Shown in pieces: positions 10,025 through 15,753 of a stretch of DNA of 23,210 nt. Origin of the DNA: a virus. Taxonomy: Duplodnaviria; Heunggongvirae; Uroviricota; Caudoviricetes. Below the pieces are notes generated by a model. The model worked only from the letters and a program-made list of their open reading frames with translations. It was not told where the DNA came from and made no database searches. The position numbers and the translations under genes are program-made. The stretch lies in IMG/VR virus record IMGVR_UViG_2861069343_000008, one strand, 5' to 3'. How positions within the stretch are numbered: the first letter of the stretch is position 1; every line of letters starts with the position of its first letter.

Positions 10025-10477
10025 TTAGTGACGCGGGTCTGTTATTATGCGAGAAGGGTTTCCGTATAAAACAAGGACCTTACTTCCTTGAGTAAATAAC
10101 GGATCTTTGCCTTGAACAATGGTCATTAAATTCCCATTCTCAGTTTCGACAACATATTCCATGCCTGTTTGTTTTGTTGCTGAAGATTCGATTGCTGCCC
10201 CGGCAATACCACCAATGACTGCACCACCAACGGCACCAACGATATTAGAACGAACTCCCCCACCAAGCGCAGAACCAGCGGTTGCCCCCACGGCAGCCCC
10301 AGCAGTCCCGCCTAACGCGGAAGTCCCACTGATATCAACCCCCCTGGCACTAATAACTGTACCAGCGATAGTTCGATTAACCATGCCCACAGAGCCAACA
10401 GAATAACTATTTGGCGATATATTTTGTGCGCATCCAACCAACACTAAGAGTGGAGCAATTACGAATAATCGCTTCAT
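10025..10477 (-). CDS. Glycine-zipper lipoprotein (Pcp/SlyB-like)
   Basis: 150 aa. Lipoprotein signal MKRLFVIAPLLVLVGC, then a Gly/Ala-rich glycine-zipper segment (GTSALGGTAGAAVGATAGSALGGGV…GAVGGAVIGGIAGAAI). Start overlaps the stop of the upstream lipoprotein gene. Confidence 0.6.
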   Translation of the reverse strand: MKRLFVIAPLLVLVGCAQNISPNSYSVGSVGMVNRTIAGTVISARGVDISGTSALGGTAGAAVGATAGSALGGGVRSNIVGAVGGAVIGGIAGAAIESSATKQTGMEYVVETENGNLMTIVQGKDPLFTQGSKVLVLYGNPSRIITDPRH

Positions 10478-11034
10478 TTAGCTACCCTAACAGGAAACAT
10501 TGGACGAGAAAGATCAACACTTTCTAATGCTTGCAAGAACTGCGTTATGTTGTTTTGCACCGCGCGATTAACAGATTCGCGTGCTCGAACAATACCGTAG
10601 AATGCGTAACTGGCTGGAACAGTACCGGTAGACTCAATATCCTGCGTATATATAATATCACCATTCGCACGGTTGATTATTTCATACCTTGCAATTGCTT
10701 TAGTTGTCATTGAAACACCAAAAGCAGGAACGTCAAGAGCCAACACTTTAACATTTAAGCTAACCGTATTTGGTGAACTATCACGAAAAATAGTCATTCG
10801 GTCGAGTGCTTCCTGCAAAGATTCACGCCAAATTGGAGTTATAGCCTCCATACCAGCAGTGATATCCCCTTTCTGCTCATCTGGACGAGCAAGTGATACC
10901 GTTAATGACTTAATTTCAGCATCTATTTTTTTCTGGCTAACTCCCACGTTAGGTGTTGAAAAATTCAATGGTGGCACACTAGCGCAACCTGTTAAAGAAC
11001 CAATAATCATGGCTAATAATATTATCTTCTTCAT
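10474..11034 (-). CDS. Lipoprotein of unknown function
   Basis: 186 aa. Signal peptide with lipobox (MKKIILLAMIIGSLTGC). No family recognised by eye. Translationally coupled to the glycine-zipper lipoprotein. Confidence 0.6.
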   Translation of the reverse strand: MKKIILLAMIIGSLTGCASVPPLNFSTPNVGVSQKKIDAEIKSLTVSLARPDEQKGDITAGMEAITPIWRESLQEALDRMTIFRDSSPNTVSLNVKVLALDVPAFGVSMTTKAIARYEIINRANGDIIYTQDIESTGTVPASYAFYGIVRARESVNRAVQNNITQFLQALESVDLSRPMFPVRVAK

Positions 11035-11275: not shown

Positions 11276-11482
11276 TTGATTGGATTAAATATGCGCGCCA
11301 AAATTTATCAACTTTCGTTATGGATATTTATTTCGTTTCTAGCGATCTATGCCTTTATTATCTATAAAGGTTCTTATATTGGAGTAGCATTGCATCAAAT
11401 TGCTTGGATCATCATTATTGCCTCTGGCTTGATTGCTAGGCTAACTAAACCAAAGCAAAAACCAATTTCGTCCAATAATTAG
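11276..11482 (+). CDS. Small hydrophobic protein (two predicted TM helices), hypothetical
   Basis: 68-aa ORF in an AT-rich intergenic region on the opposite strand to neighbouring genes. Hydrophobic stretches LSLWIFISFLAIYAFIIY and IAWIIIIASGLIARL. Start codon uncertain. Confidence 0.3.
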   Translation: MIGLNMRAKIYQLSLWIFISFLAIYAFIIYKGSYIGVALHQIAWIIIIASGLIARLTKPKQKPISSNN

Positions 11483-11518
11483 ACATGTATTAAAAAATGA
11501 TATTTTTATGTACATAGT

Positions 11519-11812
11519 CTATTGAAAATTGCCGCGATAAAATGCCAACACCCGCTTCATCGCGGCACTCTGGCGACACTCCTTGAAAATCAGATTCGTG
11601 CTCACCTTTCCTTCCCGTTCTTCCCTGGTAGCGAACCGGTAATACACCGTTCGCCAGACCTTACCATCAATAACTAAGATTCCTGTCCGCGCCATTTTAG
11701 CCGCAGCCTGGTTTATGCTGGTTACTGTTGCGCCTGTTACCGCAGCAACGTCCTGCGCACAGAAGCTCTTATGCGTCCCCAGGTAATGAATAATTGCTTC
11801 TTTTCCCGTCAT
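11519..11812 (-). CDS. ren: Ren (rex exclusion-escape protein)
   Basis: 97 aa, MTGKEAIIHYLGTHKSFCAQDVAAVTGATVTSINQAAAKMARTGILVIDGKVWRTVYYRFATREEREGK… matches lambda Ren as recalled. Confidence 0.8.
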   Translation of the reverse strand: MTGKEAIIHYLGTHKSFCAQDVAAVTGATVTSINQAAAKMARTGILVIDGKVWRTVYYRFATREEREGKVSTNLIFKECRQSAAMKRVLAFYRGNFQ

Positions 11813-11887
11813 ACACTGGCTCCTTTCAGTCCGAACTTAGCTTTGATTTCTGCAATCTTCGCCAGAGCCTGTGCACGATTTAGAGGT

Positions 11888-12337
11888 CTAAGTGCCTTTA
11901 CCTGATTTGGGTAAACTTTTCTTACCTGATTCAGGTAAATTTACCTCTTTCAGGTAAACTTTATTTTTCTTACCTGATTCGGGTAATGTTGACCATTCAC
12001 TGACCACATTATTAATGCCTATATTCCGCCCGCTCTGAATAAAAATCCCACGCTTTACCAGAACACTTTTTGCAGCAGAACACTTGTGCGGCAATATCCC
12101 GGTCAACTCGGAAAGTTGCTCGTTGCTCACCCAATCCAGTTTTTTATTAAAGCCATATGTTTTGCGCATGACAGCCAGGAAGACCAGAAGCTGGTGCTGT
12201 GTTAATCCGGCCAGCATTACAGCTTCCAGCAACTCATTTGCAATGCGCGTATAACCATCATCGAGATCTGCCACGCGCGGCTCCTTTTGTGCCGCATCCG
12301 GCACTGGAAAATTGAATATCTCAGCAGTGTTTGCCAT
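11888..12337 (-). CDS. O: Replication initiator O, N-terminal iteron-binding domain only (gene truncated just after the iterons)
   Basis: MANTAEIFNFPVPDAAQKEPRVADLDDGYTRIANELLEA…LLVFLAVMRKTYGFNKK… aligns with the lambda O N-terminal domain. GGGAGG Shine-Dalgarno 7 nt upstream. The ORF ends 10 nt past the last iteron and only 76 bp from ren. No O C-terminal domain and no P gene follow. Confidence 0.7.
   Translation of the reverse strand: MANTAEIFNFPVPDAAQKEPRVADLDDGYTRIANELLEAVMLAGLTQHQLLVFLAVMRKTYGFNKKLDWVSNEQLSELTGILPHKCSAAKSVLVKRGIFIQSGRNIGINNVVSEWSTLPESGKKNKVYLKEVNLPESGKKSLPKSGKGT
11898..11986. repeat. Origin iterons: four 17-bp near-palindromic direct repeats inside the O reading frame
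   Basis: TTACCTGATTTGGGTAA (11898-11914), TTACCTGATTCAGGTAA (11922-11938, perfect palindrome), TTACCTCTTTCAGGTAA (11941-11957) and TTACCTGATTCGGGTAA (11970-11986). They encode the LPESGKK repeats at the end of the ORF. Confidence 0.75.
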
Positions 12338-12423
12338 AATTCCTCCCGCAATGAGTGTGTTACGATTTGCACCTGAAAGTCGGTTCTGTTCCAGCAGACC
12401 GGCTTTCGCCATTTCTGAACCTG

Positions 12424-12963
12424 TCATATCGCCCCCAGCATGGTAGTAACCATCGCCATCAATGGACCAGCCAGATCTGGGTCCACACGAAACATCGACA
12501 CAATACCTTCACTAATTTCCTTCAGTTTCTGGTGGCGTGGTGCGTTGAGAATGACAGCCTGTTTTGCCTCACTGAGTTCCTTTTCCATTTCAGCCAACCT
12601 AGCCATGAAGCTATCCTGCTCAACCAGGTAACCGCGATATTCCAGCGGTAGTACCGCCAGAATTGCCGGGGTCAGTTCACGCACGTTATTTCGGTATTTT
12701 TCAGAATCGAATTTGTTATCGAGGAAGCGGAACAGCTTCTGGCGTGCACGGCTGACATCATCAGGGAAATCGATGGTGCCGCCGCCCTGCTCCCGATACT
12801 CATTCACAATGAGTGTGGCAACGACATCCTGATTATCTTCAGCCGACCAAGCGCGGACGGCATCACGGATTTTTTCGTGGCCTGGCACCTGTTTTGTTTG
12901 AGAACGATTTATCACCGCAGTCGGGCTAAATCCGCTAGTCTGTTGGTATGTAAGTGGTTGCAT
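12424..12963 (-). CDS. YdaT-like protein (occupies the cII position downstream of cro)
   Basis: 179-aa ORF directly downstream of the cro-like gene and upstream of O. Family assignment is a tentative recollection of Rac YdaT-type proteins. Confidence 0.45.
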   Translation of the reverse strand: MQPLTYQQTSGFSPTAVINRSQTKQVPGHEKIRDAVRAWSAEDNQDVVATLIVNEYREQGGGTIDFPDDVSRARQKLFRFLDNKFDSEKYRNNVRELTPAILAVLPLEYRGYLVEQDSFMARLAEMEKELSEAKQAVILNAPRHQKLKEISEGIVSMFRVDPDLAGPLMAMVTTMLGAI

Positions 12964-13032
12964 AATTGACTCCTTTAGTTTGAATTGACTGTTAAGTTGA
13001 TTGCTTATTGTTAAAGAGCGTGAAATGGAAAT

Positions 13033-13263
13033 TTAAGCTGCGTTCTTTTCGGTGTGTGGAAACAACTTCGGAAGATCCGGGCGAATCTGGTATGCCTTCA
13101 CTACTCCACCAGTAGCCGTAACAATGCTGCCGACATGTTCAGGGGATACCTTTGCTTTGTTGTGAAGCCACTTATAGACGGCCTGCTGTGAAACTTCGCA
13201 AGCAGCGCCCAGTTTCTTTTGTGAACCAACGATATTGATCGCTGTTTTGATAGCTGGGTTCAT
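13033..13263 (-). CDS. cro: Cro-like HTH repressor (YdaS/Cro family)
   Basis: 76 aa with an HTH (QKKLGAACEVSQQAVYKWLHNK), divergent from cI across an operator-rich spacer. GGAGG Shine-Dalgarno upstream. Confidence 0.7.
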   Translation of the reverse strand: MNPAIKTAINIVGSQKKLGAACEVSQQAVYKWLHNKAKVSPEHVGSIVTATGGVVKAYQIRPDLPKLFPHTEKNAA

Positions 13264-13290
13264 AACAACCTCCGTGGTTAATTTGAATCA

Positions 13291-13362
13291 AGATTAAAAC
13301 TATGGTTGTTTTTAGTCAACAACCATTTTCGTTTGATGGAATAAAACCTTGGTTGTACATTT
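13291..13362. promoter_or_regulatory. OR-like region: divergent pR / pRM with three operator repeats
   Basis: Three related sites: AAAACTATGGTTGTTTT (13297-13313), AACAACCATTTT (about 13318-13331) and AAAACCTTGGTTGTACA (13345-13361). For cro: -35 TTGACT and -10-like TAATCT on the minus strand, with an operator in the spacer. For cI: a -10-like TACATT ending about 7 nt before the ATG. Confidence 0.55.
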
Positions 13363-13367
13363 GGACT

Positions 13368-14057
13368 ATGAAAACAACACTCTCAGAAAGACTTAAAGAA
13401 GCCAGATTAGCGCGAGGCCTTACACAAAAGGCGCTTGGGGATTTGGTCGGGGTTAGCCAAGCTGCTATTCAGAAAATCGAAACAGGGAAAGCTAATCAAA
13501 CAACTAAAATCGTGGAGATCGCGAACGCTTTGGGTGTGCGCGCAGAATGGTTATCTTCTGGCGTTGGAAATATGTCAGACAGTACAGTGCAACCAATACA
13601 ATCAACTGTCAGCCATTCCAAATACTTCAAGATTGACGTTCTTGATATAGAAGTCAGTGCTGGGCCGGGAGTCATCAACCGTGAGTTTGTAGAAGTTCTA
13701 CGCTCGGTTGAGTACTCGTTTGACGATGCTCGTCACATGTTCGATGGTAGGAAGGCGGAAAATATCCGCATCATTAACGTGCGTGGTGACAGCATGTCAG
13801 GAACGATCGAACCAGGTGATCTGCTGTTCGTTGATATCACAGTTAAATCTTTCGACGGTGATGGTATCTATGCGTTTCTGTACGACGACACAGCCCATGT
13901 AAAGCGCCTGCAAATGATGAAGGATAAGCTGCTGGTCATCTCTGATAACAAAAGCTACTCACCGTGGGACCCGATCGAGAAAGACGAGATGAACCGGGTG
14001 TTCATCTTCGGTAAGGTTATTGGGAGCATGCCGCAGACATATAGGAAGCATGGTTAA
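13368..14057 (+). CDS. cI: CI-type prophage repressor (HTH-XRE N-domain plus S24 LexA-like autopeptidase C-domain)
   Basis: MKTTLSERLKEARLARGLTQKALGDLVGVSQAAIQKIETGK… HTH. Ala-Gly cleavage site (VSAGPG), Ser nucleophile in RGDSMSG and Lys in HVKRL. The track ORF starts at 13302 inside the operator, so I prefer 13368. Confidence 0.85.
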   Translation: MKTTLSERLKEARLARGLTQKALGDLVGVSQAAIQKIETGKANQTTKIVEIANALGVRAEWLSSGVGNMSDSTVQPIQSTVSHSKYFKIDVLDIEVSAGPGVINREFVEVLRSVEYSFDDARHMFDGRKAENIRIINVRGDSMSGTIEPGDLLFVDITVKSFDGDGIYAFLYDDTAHVKRLQMMKDKLLVISDNKSYSPWDPIEKDEMNRVFIFGKVIGSMPQTYRKHG

Positions 14058-14179
14058 AGTGAGGCTAAAAAACAGTTACAGCAATAGGCCTGTTGTTTTT
14101 CTTTAAACACGCAGTGTTAAACCGCTCTTTGAGATGCGGAGTAATGAGATGGAAGACTTGAATCACATAAGGGTTAGTG

Positions 14180-14929
14180 ATGGAGTGCGTAGCGAGCAGC
14201 AATAGTGCAATACCTAATGTCGTTGAAGTAATACGTCGCATCAATGAAGGTTCCACTCAGCCATTTCTTTGCAAATGTGATGATGGGCAGTTGTATGTTT
14301 TGAAGTCAAAACCATCAATGCCCCCGAAAAATCTCTTAGCTGAGTTCATTTCGGCGTGTTTGGCTAATGATATCGGCCTTCCTTTACCTGACTTTAAAAT
14401 CGTATTTGTGCCAGAGGAACTTATAGAGTACTCACCTGATCTGCAGCAACAAATTTGTACAGGATATGCCTTTGCTTCATTGTTCATTGACGGTGCAATA
14501 GCGTTAACGTTTACGCAGTCAAGAAACGAAACGATCATCCCAGTCGAACAGCAAAAATTAATCTATGTTTTTGATAAATGGATATTAAATGCAGACAGAA
14601 CGCTTACTGACAAAGGTGGAAACGTTAACATCCTTTATGACATCAGTAACGATAAGTATTATCTGATTGACCATAATCTCTCATTTGATCAGAATGCTGG
14701 ACCTGAAGATTTTTCTGTGCACGTGTACGGCCCTGGTAACCGCAAATGGCAATATGATTTAGTGGATCGCGTAGAGTACCGCCAGAGGGTCGTTAACAGT
14801 TTACACAAGCTTCCTGCTATCCTTGACGAAATTCCAGAAGAGTGGATAGTAGATGAGGAGTTTTTACCTTTTGTCTGCACTACGCTAGACAAAGGTGATT
14901 GTGATGAATTTTGGAGCGCAATAGAATGA
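14180..14929 (+). CDS. Putative kinase-fold protein (HipA / PI3-4-kinase-like motifs) in the rexA position; function unknown
   Basis: About 249 aa, first gene downstream of cI on the same strand. AAGGG Shine-Dalgarno 7 nt upstream. By-eye motifs: VLKSKP (possible ATP-binding Lys), FDKWILNADRTLTDKGGNVNIL (catalytic-loop-like) and YLIDHNLSF (DFG-like). Lower GC than flanking phage genes. Confidence 0.55.
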   Translation: MECVASSNSAIPNVVEVIRRINEGSTQPFLCKCDDGQLYVLKSKPSMPPKNLLAEFISACLANDIGLPLPDFKIVFVPEELIEYSPDLQQQICTGYAFASLFIDGAIALTFTQSRNETIIPVEQQKLIYVFDKWILNADRTLTDKGGNVNILYDISNDKYYLIDHNLSFDQNAGPEDFSVHVYGPGNRKWQYDLVDRVEYRQRVVNSLHKLPAILDEIPEEWIVDEEFLPFVCTTLDKGDCDEFWSAIE

Positions 14930-15753
14930 CAACTCCATGCCTATATAGCATCGTTCGCTATGCGCCTTATGCGGAGACTGAAGAATTCGCAAACATAGGC
15001 GTACTTCTGTGCGCGCCAAAAGAAAATTACTTTGATTTCCAGCTCACAAAGCGAAATGACTCTCGTGTAAAGAATTTTTTCCATGATGATTGTATTTTCC
15101 CTGTAGCAAAAGACTCAATACAAAGAGAACTACAGTTCGCAAAAATGCATGCGACCCAGATTGTTGGACATCAACAACTTGCACAATTCTTCAGATATTT
15201 TACAAACAAAAAAGAATCAATTTTTCAGTTCAGTTCTACGAGAGTGATTCTCAGCGAAAACCCAAAAGAAGAGCTGGCCCGCATTTACAATAAATATGTA
15301 AACCACTCTGACTACACAAAAGAGCGCCGTGAAGATGTTCTAGCCAGAGAGCTAAAACGAAGTATCGATAGAATAGATGGATTGAAGAACGTCTTCAAAC
15401 AAGCAACCATTGATGGGTATTTCGCAAAGTTCTCAATGCCATTGGTCGCCAAGAAGCATGACAGGATCCAATGTGCCATCAAACCTCTGGCATTCACTCA
15501 AGCTGAACCAGGAAAAATGATGGAGCATAGTGATACTTGGGTGATGAGAATAACTCGAGCAGCAGAAGAAAACCTGCTTTCACTTGATGACATTTTATTC
15601 ACAATTGAAACTCCTGAATCACCAAACTCAGGCCAAAGCAAAGTTATTGACATCATAAAGAGAACTATGGATGCTAAGAAAATAAATCATATACCTGCAT
15701 CCAACCACAAAGAAACTATTGATTTTGCAAAAAAAATACTTCCCCAAGTTTAA
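14926..15753 (+). CDS. DUF3037-like protein in the rexB position; function unknown
   Basis: 275 aa. The start ATG overlaps the upstream stop (ATGA), with GGAG 9 nt upstream. The N-terminus (LYSIVRYAPYAETEEFANIGVLL) matches the DUF3037 signature as I recall it. Followed by a strong terminator. Confidence 0.55.
   Translation: MTTPCLYSIVRYAPYAETEEFANIGVLLCAPKENYFDFQLTKRNDSRVKNFFHDDCIFPVAKDSIQRELQFAKMHATQIVGHQQLAQFFRYFTNKKESIFQFSSTRVILSENPKEELARIYNKYVNHSDYTKERREDVLARELKRSIDRIDGLKNVFKQATIDGYFAKFSMPLVAKKHDRIQCAIKPLAFTQAEPGKMMEHSDTWVMRITRAAEENLLSLDDILFTIETPESPNSGQSKVIDIIKRTMDAKKINHIPASNHKETIDFAKKILPQV

Follow-up and report, generated by a model that had tools for sequence, protein, structure and literature searches.

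A truncated O gene and a P remnant as the very probable scar of a single deletion in the replication module of a cryptic lambda-like prophage

Is the short O-like gene of this lambda-like Escherichia coli prophage, which ends just past an array of iterons, a functional element in its own right or the residue of a larger replication module? The question is addressed here for a window of 23,210 nucleotides, the term denoting the whole stretch of DNA that was analysed. A preceding sequence-only reading described a module reduced to the N-terminal domain of O and four palindromic iterons, and proposed that this residue might exclude superinfecting phages at the level of replication. Our analysis indicates that the feature is very probably the scar of one illegitimate 1,099-bp deletion in the replication module of an already defective lambda-like prophage. 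It represents ordinary prophage decay in one sequence, a replication-dead scar, and no new system. The structural part of the sequence-only reading is right yet incomplete, as the lesion is a single deletion, a fifth iteron was lost, the tail of P was kept and the prophage was already defective.

The truncated initiator gene and its prophage setting

The truncated O gene (11888..12337, minus strand) was delineated from the open reading frame list, the Pfam family PF04492 and its identity to the intact O gene of E. coli WCHEC020031. It extends from the ATG at 12337 to a TAG at 11890-11888 and comprises 149 codons. A Pfam search placed a complete Phage_rep_O domain (PF04492) on residues 21-115 (E=1.7e-34), with a score of 118.6 bits against a gathering cut-off of 28.7 and coverage of profile positions 1-95 of 95; the earlier statement that the O-like gene keeps its iteron-binding N-terminal domain is thereby borne out on the 149-residue product. 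A PDB sequence search with the same product as query returned no match. All 149 residues are identical to residues 1-149 of the 309-residue O of WCHEC020031. Alignment with full-length O proteins, which the sequence-only reading had proposed and which was run with lambda O, the intact O and the O of phage 4A7, places the end of the stub in the O linker, past the iteron-encoded repeat. Residues 150-309 of O, including the whole conserved C-terminal half, are gone.

The ATG at 12337 is preceded by a GGGAGGA ribosome-binding site, aligns with the start of lambda O and is the start given by RefSeq. An in-frame alternative ATG lies at 12427 (window 12337-12427, minus strand), where it overlaps the stop codon of the YdaT-domain gene and would add 30 residues to O; this start is used in some annotations, namely those of phage 4A7 and E. 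coli E89.

Four 17-bp palindromic iterons lie within the O coding sequence just past the N-terminal domain, at 11898-11986, where the sequence-only reading had located them. In gene order, and as written on the minus strand, they are TTACCCGAATCAGGTAA (11970..11986), TTACCTGAAAGAGGTAA (11941..11957), TTACCTGAATCAGGTAA (11922..11938) and TTACCCAAATCAGGTAA (11898..11914), the last being the final complete iteron that remains. A search of the 23 kb with the pattern TTACCTGATTCAGGTAA, allowing <=3 mismatches, gave eight strand-matches, all at the four iteron sites, compared with a mean of 0.05 matches in shuffles of the window. In a single frame, three of the four translate as LPESGKK, LPESGKK and LPKSGKG, and to that extent the claim that the array encodes an LPESGKK repeat stands; it fails for the second iteron, which is translated in another frame as YLKEVN. 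The stop codon of the stub ends 10 nt past the last iteron and the ATG of ren (11812) follows 76 nt beyond, both distances agreeing with those reported before. In the 40 nt past the last iteron, A+T content is 47% in the window, compared with 75% in the intact allele and 78% in lambda, in agreement with the earlier claim that the A+T-rich segment of the origin is missing.

The flanking genes retain a lambdoid early arrangement. Downstream of the stub, an intact ren (11519..11812, minus strand) encodes a product identical to the RefSeq 'protein ren' WP_000145917.1. Directly upstream of O, in the same operon and at the position of cII, lies a YdaT-domain gene (12424..12963, minus strand; Pfam YdaT_toxin, E=9.5e-30), and YdaT is treated as a CII equivalent in a passage of PMC9986795. 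The first gene of the rightward early operon that holds the stub is cro-like (13033..13263, minus strand; Pfam YdaS_toxin and P22_Cro). Divergent from it lies an intact gene for a CI-like repressor (13368..14057, plus strand; Pfam HTH_3 and Peptidase_S24), and RefSeq has WP_000858975.1 at the corresponding position. Between the cro-like and CI-like genes, a gap of 104 bp contains a perfect palindrome with 9-bp arms, ATGGTTGTT-TTTAGTC-AACAACCAT (13302-13326), which is likely an operator. In a promoter scan of 11400-13400, the interval from the cro-like gene to the stub gave nothing promoter-like on the minus strand, a weak negative given that a simple consensus match was used.

The prophage occupies the lambda attachment site of E. 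coli, between ybhC and ybhB/bioA, and contains int, xis, exo, bet, gam, kil, the immunity region, the replication module, nin-region genes, Q and a lysis cassette. A small packaging gene follows the lysis cassette and borders directly on tail-fibre fragments (YD786; window 1-3200; L002 5660-8110), and a gene for a SAM-dependent methyltransferase is found at the edge of the late region. No head or tail genes are listed in the annotation of the YD786 prophage, and relatives that keep O and P are for this reason already non-viable.

Several additional genes were observed at other positions of the prophage. Adjoining the CI-like repressor gene are genes for a HipA-family kinase and a DUF3037 protein (14177-15753, plus strand), with a few bases of overlap between them. 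They correspond to both components, A (E=5.8e-15) and B (E=4e-16), of PDC-M66, a candidate defence system in PADLOC; the related E89 prophage lacks this pair, which identifies it as an inserted accessory gene pair ('moron'). Between ren and ybcN/ninB lie two overlapping genes with lipoprotein-type signals (…LVGC and …LTGC; 10025-11034, minus strand), which are hypothetical in RefSeq, gave no PADLOC match and are probably also inserted accessory genes. Between the Q antiterminator gene and the lysis cassette (5053-7811), a YbgA-family gene, a divergent lipocalin-family gene and a frameshifted HTH-domain gene constitute accessory cargo at the place where other lambdoid phages have toxin or porin genes.

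The deletion junction and the intact allele

The whole window matches many complete E. coli genomes without mismatch, save for one 1,099-bp gap at 11889/11890. When WCHEC020031 (L001) and YD786 (L002) were compared with the window by blastn, two blocks were obtained that are 100% identical, lie 1,099 bp apart in the reference and overlap by 2 nt. The region 11400-13300 likewise aligns at 100% identity with hundreds of complete E. coli genomes; the alignment is split in two and covers 3,000 bases there versus 1,901 in the window. At the junction (11889..11890), the dinucleotide 'TA' is common to both parental sides, namely the start of iteron 5 in O and codon 207 in P, so that the deletion extends from 2-3 nt inside iteron 5 to P codon 207. 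The intact gene reads ...GGC ACT TAC CCG... at the break, versus ...GGC ACT TAG ACC... in the window. The TAG stop was therefore created by the deletion junction, and the product is O(1-149) with zero extra residues.

Two full-length products are annotated in the intact allele: an O of 309 aa ('replication protein') and a 'replication protein P' of 233 aa, the latter with the entire Phage_lambda_P domain (PF06992) at residues 38-198. What survives of P in the window (11809..11888, minus strand) is codons 208-233 and the stop codon, outside that domain and out of frame with the O stub; tblastn detects it, its translation in the P frame being RPLNRAQALAKIAEIKAKFGLKGASV followed by the stop, and the match of intact P over this remnant is padded at its upstream end by iteron sequence. 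The P stop codon overlaps the ATG of ren in the window, as in the intact phage. The 76-nt 'spacer' before ren is accordingly the last 26 codons of P and not intergenic DNA. The claim that the O C-terminus and P are missing thus holds for O residues 150-309 and P residues 1-207, and P is not wholly missing, as its last 26 codons remain. No other helicase-loader gene (P or DnaC-like) was detected, since tblastn with intact P found the tail alone and the annotation of the identical YD786 prophage lists none other; on this point the sequence-only reading is upheld.

Sequence reading and a scan of the intact locus showed that the intact allele has five iterons, spaced at 29, 19, 24 and 23 bp (prophage L001 4575-4686; phage 4A7 L004 2696-2807), followed by ACACAAAAGACAAACTAACAAAAGACAATATAAAACC, a 40-mer of 75% A+T. 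The array of four described earlier is therefore what remains in the window; the ancestral array had five, the fifth being the one that the break enters by 2-3 nt. At 97.6% identity, the intact O-P-ren segment is also found in the isolated phages 4A7, Lambda_4C10, 1W, 3W and Perceval, among which the five iterons were read in 4A7 only. Because isolated phages carry it at this identity, the ancestral module is taken to have been a working one. In the intact relative, only the C-terminal half of O and P match lambda and phage 21, being nearly identical to them, which indicates that the N-terminal domain and the iterons form a distinct specificity type.

Comparable lesions occur in related prophages. 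In E. coli E89, an independent deletion begins within iteron 3 and ends near P codon 160, the two sides overlapping by 3 nt (L003 4200-4360); it leaves a similar stub of the same O type, and the locus is annotated as two partial pseudogenes. In E. coli FCI54, the P gene of this same prophage carries an IS2 insertion in its 3' end that shortens the product to 218 aa (L011 774-2002), and in DLP12 of K-12 the tail of P (peaD) alone is kept beside renD. Such loss of replication genes is well known from decaying prophages. E. coli 042 also carries an IS2 somewhere in the same prophage. The idea that iterons are a deletion hot spot was considered, as the window and E89 both break within the array, but was rejected because the query that found E89 required iteron-proximal O.

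The expected consequences can be framed by the lambda model, as set out in the relevant sections of PMC6022878: dimers of O attach to the iterons by way of the N-terminal domain and put strain on the neighbouring A+T-rich DNA, and recruitment of the P-DnaB complex falls to the C-terminal domain. A single illegitimate deletion would have removed iteron 5, the A+T-rich segment, the linker and C-terminal domain of O and P codons 1-207; in lambda, the A+T-rich segment is the one that unwinds and the O C-terminal domain is the one that binds P. With these elements gone, theta replication should not start under the lambda model. There is thus strong reason to think that origin firing is impossible in this prophage, and the earlier conclusion that it cannot replicate as a phage finds support on the same model.

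The remnant would then be a pseudogene from which the rightward, repressor-controlled promoter would yield O(1-149). To judge from its sequence, this product should still bind the four iterons and would be unable to recruit P or DnaB. As the stub lies behind the cro-like gene, with no minus-strand promoter-like site detected in between, it should be silent while the intact CI-like repressor is made, and the repressor would be expected to keep it off except after SOS induction. The retained int, xis and lysis cassette presumably leave the prophage able to excise and lyse, and induction may kill the cell anyway. For the host, the loss would probably be neutral or mildly useful, in that the toxicity of P and the replication of a particle-less prophage would both be removed.

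Frequency of the allele and alternative readings

Among 5,426 complete E. coli genomes searched with a 301-bp query centred on the junction, none carries it, and E89 alone has both query halves close together. Neither GTDB representative genomes nor JGI metagenomes contain the 30-mer that spans the junction. An 18-mer gave three matches in IMG/VR and one in a Bacillota MAG; all four were rejected as junction carriers because their flanks are unrelated and the matches are due to chance, leaving no true carrier in IMG/VR by this search. The N-terminal type of O is carried by 2,288 of the 5,426 complete genomes, and the intact segment spanning the breakpoint is present in 2,372 of them. With about 2,300 genomes intact across the breakpoint and the junction found in none, the truncation is an exception and not a recurring form.

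Exact-protein look-ups with the 149-aa and 179-aa readings of the stub retrieved five contigs (L006-L010) from independent draft or metagenome assemblies, in all of which the gene is cut by the contig end. They end in GGCACT, GGCACTT or GGCACTTA, at most 2 nt from the breakpoint and the first base of iteron 5, and stop 0-2 nt short of the first junction-specific base, so they are uninformative on the deletion. An exact-protein look-up retrieves only contigs ending in that codon, and the coincidence is largely a product of this method of selection. The same allele was not observed in independent genomes, where a conserved (selected) variant would be expected to occur.

Positive selection for the deletion is a tentative possibility that adds to the single-deletion explanation and does not compete with it. 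According to this proposal, the loss removed a toxic P, which sequesters DnaB, together with in-situ or abortive replication, and the prophage would be the natural counterpart of the RK- survivors described for lambda. The lambda literature provides the basis, as expression of lambda P is reported in PMC3640518 to be lethal and, in the part of PMC6022878 concerned with replicative killing, survivors of the induction of a non-excisable prophage carry lesions in O, P or ori. The independent lesions in the same module of E89, FCI54 and DLP12 point in the same direction. Against it, the module is unbroken at this point in about 2,300 genomes, and any selection to remove it must therefore be weak; one private allele cannot demonstrate selection; and the presence of int, xis and an intact lysis cassette sets this prophage apart from the laboratory situation, which is non-excisable and non-lysing.

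An assembly error or sequence edit in a genome that is truly intact appears improbable. The perfect agreement of the rest of the window with many genomes and the absence of the junction from every other public sequence searched would fit such an artefact, as would the fact that the exact-protein look-ups yielded contig-end fragments and never a contig with the window. The junction homology is only 2 nt, however, and the join connects no two iterons or other repeats, unlike a repeat collapse, and a comparable natural deletion is present in the complete genome of E89.

The interference proposed in the sequence-only reading, in which the stub domain and the iterons act as a decoy that occupies the origin or titrates the initiator of a phage with the same origin, is in our judgement very unlikely. 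In its favour, the whole Phage_rep_O domain and four iterons are retained, phages and prophages with the same origin are very common (2,288/5,426 E. coli genomes and several isolated phages), and laboratory precedents exist, so that replication-level exclusion is already known as a concept from nonimmune exclusion (NIE) and from the titration of O by iterons. As described in passages of PMC3349717, derepressed, P-defective cryptic lambda prophages cause NIE of rep-lambda phages, and plasmids with ITN3-4 and transcribed oop block such phages, titration of O being discussed as a cause. The same passages state that the plasmid inhibition phenotype needs multicopy iterons and oop transcription. 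In the window, iterons are present, but no oop homologue was detected and there is one copy per chromosome: blastn-short with the lambda oop region gave 9-13 nt chance matches alone, and an Rfam scan of the whole window gave no match. The stub furthermore lies behind a repressible promoter and should be off while the CI-like repressor is made, and the allele is private, without recurrence or conservation. The proposal of replication-level exclusion is therefore left unsupported, the allele being private, single-copy, repressed and without oop.

Lambda itself offers two further arguments against interference by the stub. Amber alleles of lambda O leave similar N-terminal fragments, that of Oam317 being 160 aa long, and a classical report cited in PMC6022878 describes complementation between O-defective and P-defective phages upon co-infection. 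If ambers that leave a fragment, such as Oam317, also complement, O fragments would not be expected to be strongly dominant. The second argument concerns protein stability. Lambda O is quickly degraded by ClpXP through an N-terminal signal, and the stub retains the N-terminal end that bears this signal. A related idea, which we consider highly improbable, is that after SOS induction O(1-149) might occupy the iterons of other lambdoids with the same origin without delivering P-DnaB, lowering their replication and burst, and so act between prophages as a dominant-negative initiator of natural origin.

There is practically no chance that the gene is a complete initiator of a naturally short family consisting of the N-terminal domain only: its reading frame does end tidily, exactly at residue 149 and without foreign residues, but its 149 of 149 residues match the first part of a 309-aa protein at 100%, the flanks match on either side of a 1,099-bp gap and the stop codon itself was made by the junction, so that this reading is refuted and, as the sequence-only reading had held, O is truncated.

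The single-deletion scar has its main consequence for annotation, where the open reading frame is best described as an O pseudogene (residues 1-149) with an adjoining P remnant in a replication-dead cryptic prophage; beyond correct annotation its importance is small. Should the stub interfere with phages of the same origin, it would be a natural instance of a type of interference already seen with lambda constructs in the laboratory, and with the origin type present in about 42% of complete E. coli genomes an ecological reach would be possible. A single private allele gives no reason to expect an ecological effect.

Comparison with known replication modules and lesions

The closest known system is lambda O/ori-lambda/P (PF04492, PF06992). 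The layout is the same, with a cro-like gene, a gene in the cII position, O with the origin inside it, P and ren. The start of lambda O, MTNTAKILNF, aligns with MANTAEIFNF of the window O, and the A-rich segment past the lambda iterons resembles that of the intact relative. What sets the prophage module apart from lambda is the specificity type of its N-terminal domain and iterons (TTACCYNNNNNRGGTAA), an ancestral array of five iterons versus four, YdaT in place of CII and an oop that is undetectable in the window. A further difference is the deletion in the window, which took the A+T-rich segment together with the C-terminal domain of O and residues 1-207 of P.

The RK- ilr mutants of cryptic lambda prophages from the Hayes laboratory provide the nearest functional parallel, as presented in sections of PMC6022878. 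There, lesions in O, P or ori abolish initiation and the immunity region remains intact, likewise the arrangement found here. The RK- mutants stem from laboratory selection on non-excisable cI[Ts] fragments, and most of the sequenced ones are small deletions, insertions or a stop codon, whereas the lesion in the window is a natural 1.1-kb deletion from O to P without sign of selection. NIE and the plasmid inhibition phenotype (IP), for which we draw on passages of PMC3349717, share the mechanism that was proposed for the stub, namely origin-specific interference by a P-defective prophage or by iteron-bearing DNA. NIE needs a derepressed prophage, and IP needs a multicopy plasmid, ITN3-4 and oop transcription; the window element, by comparison, is single-copy, lies behind a repressible promoter and has no oop.

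Lambda Oam317, with its amber at codon 161, yields an N-terminal O fragment of similar length (160 aa versus 149 aa), but it is a point mutation, the phage retains its origin and P intact, and the allele acts as a plain O-null. The peaD-renD segment of DLP12 in K-12 is likewise part of a cryptic lambdoid prophage in which a deletion leaves a C-terminal piece of P directly upstream of ren. The DLP12 deletion also took O, the origin and the immunity region, whereas the prophage in the window keeps its immunity region, the N-terminal domain of O and four iterons.
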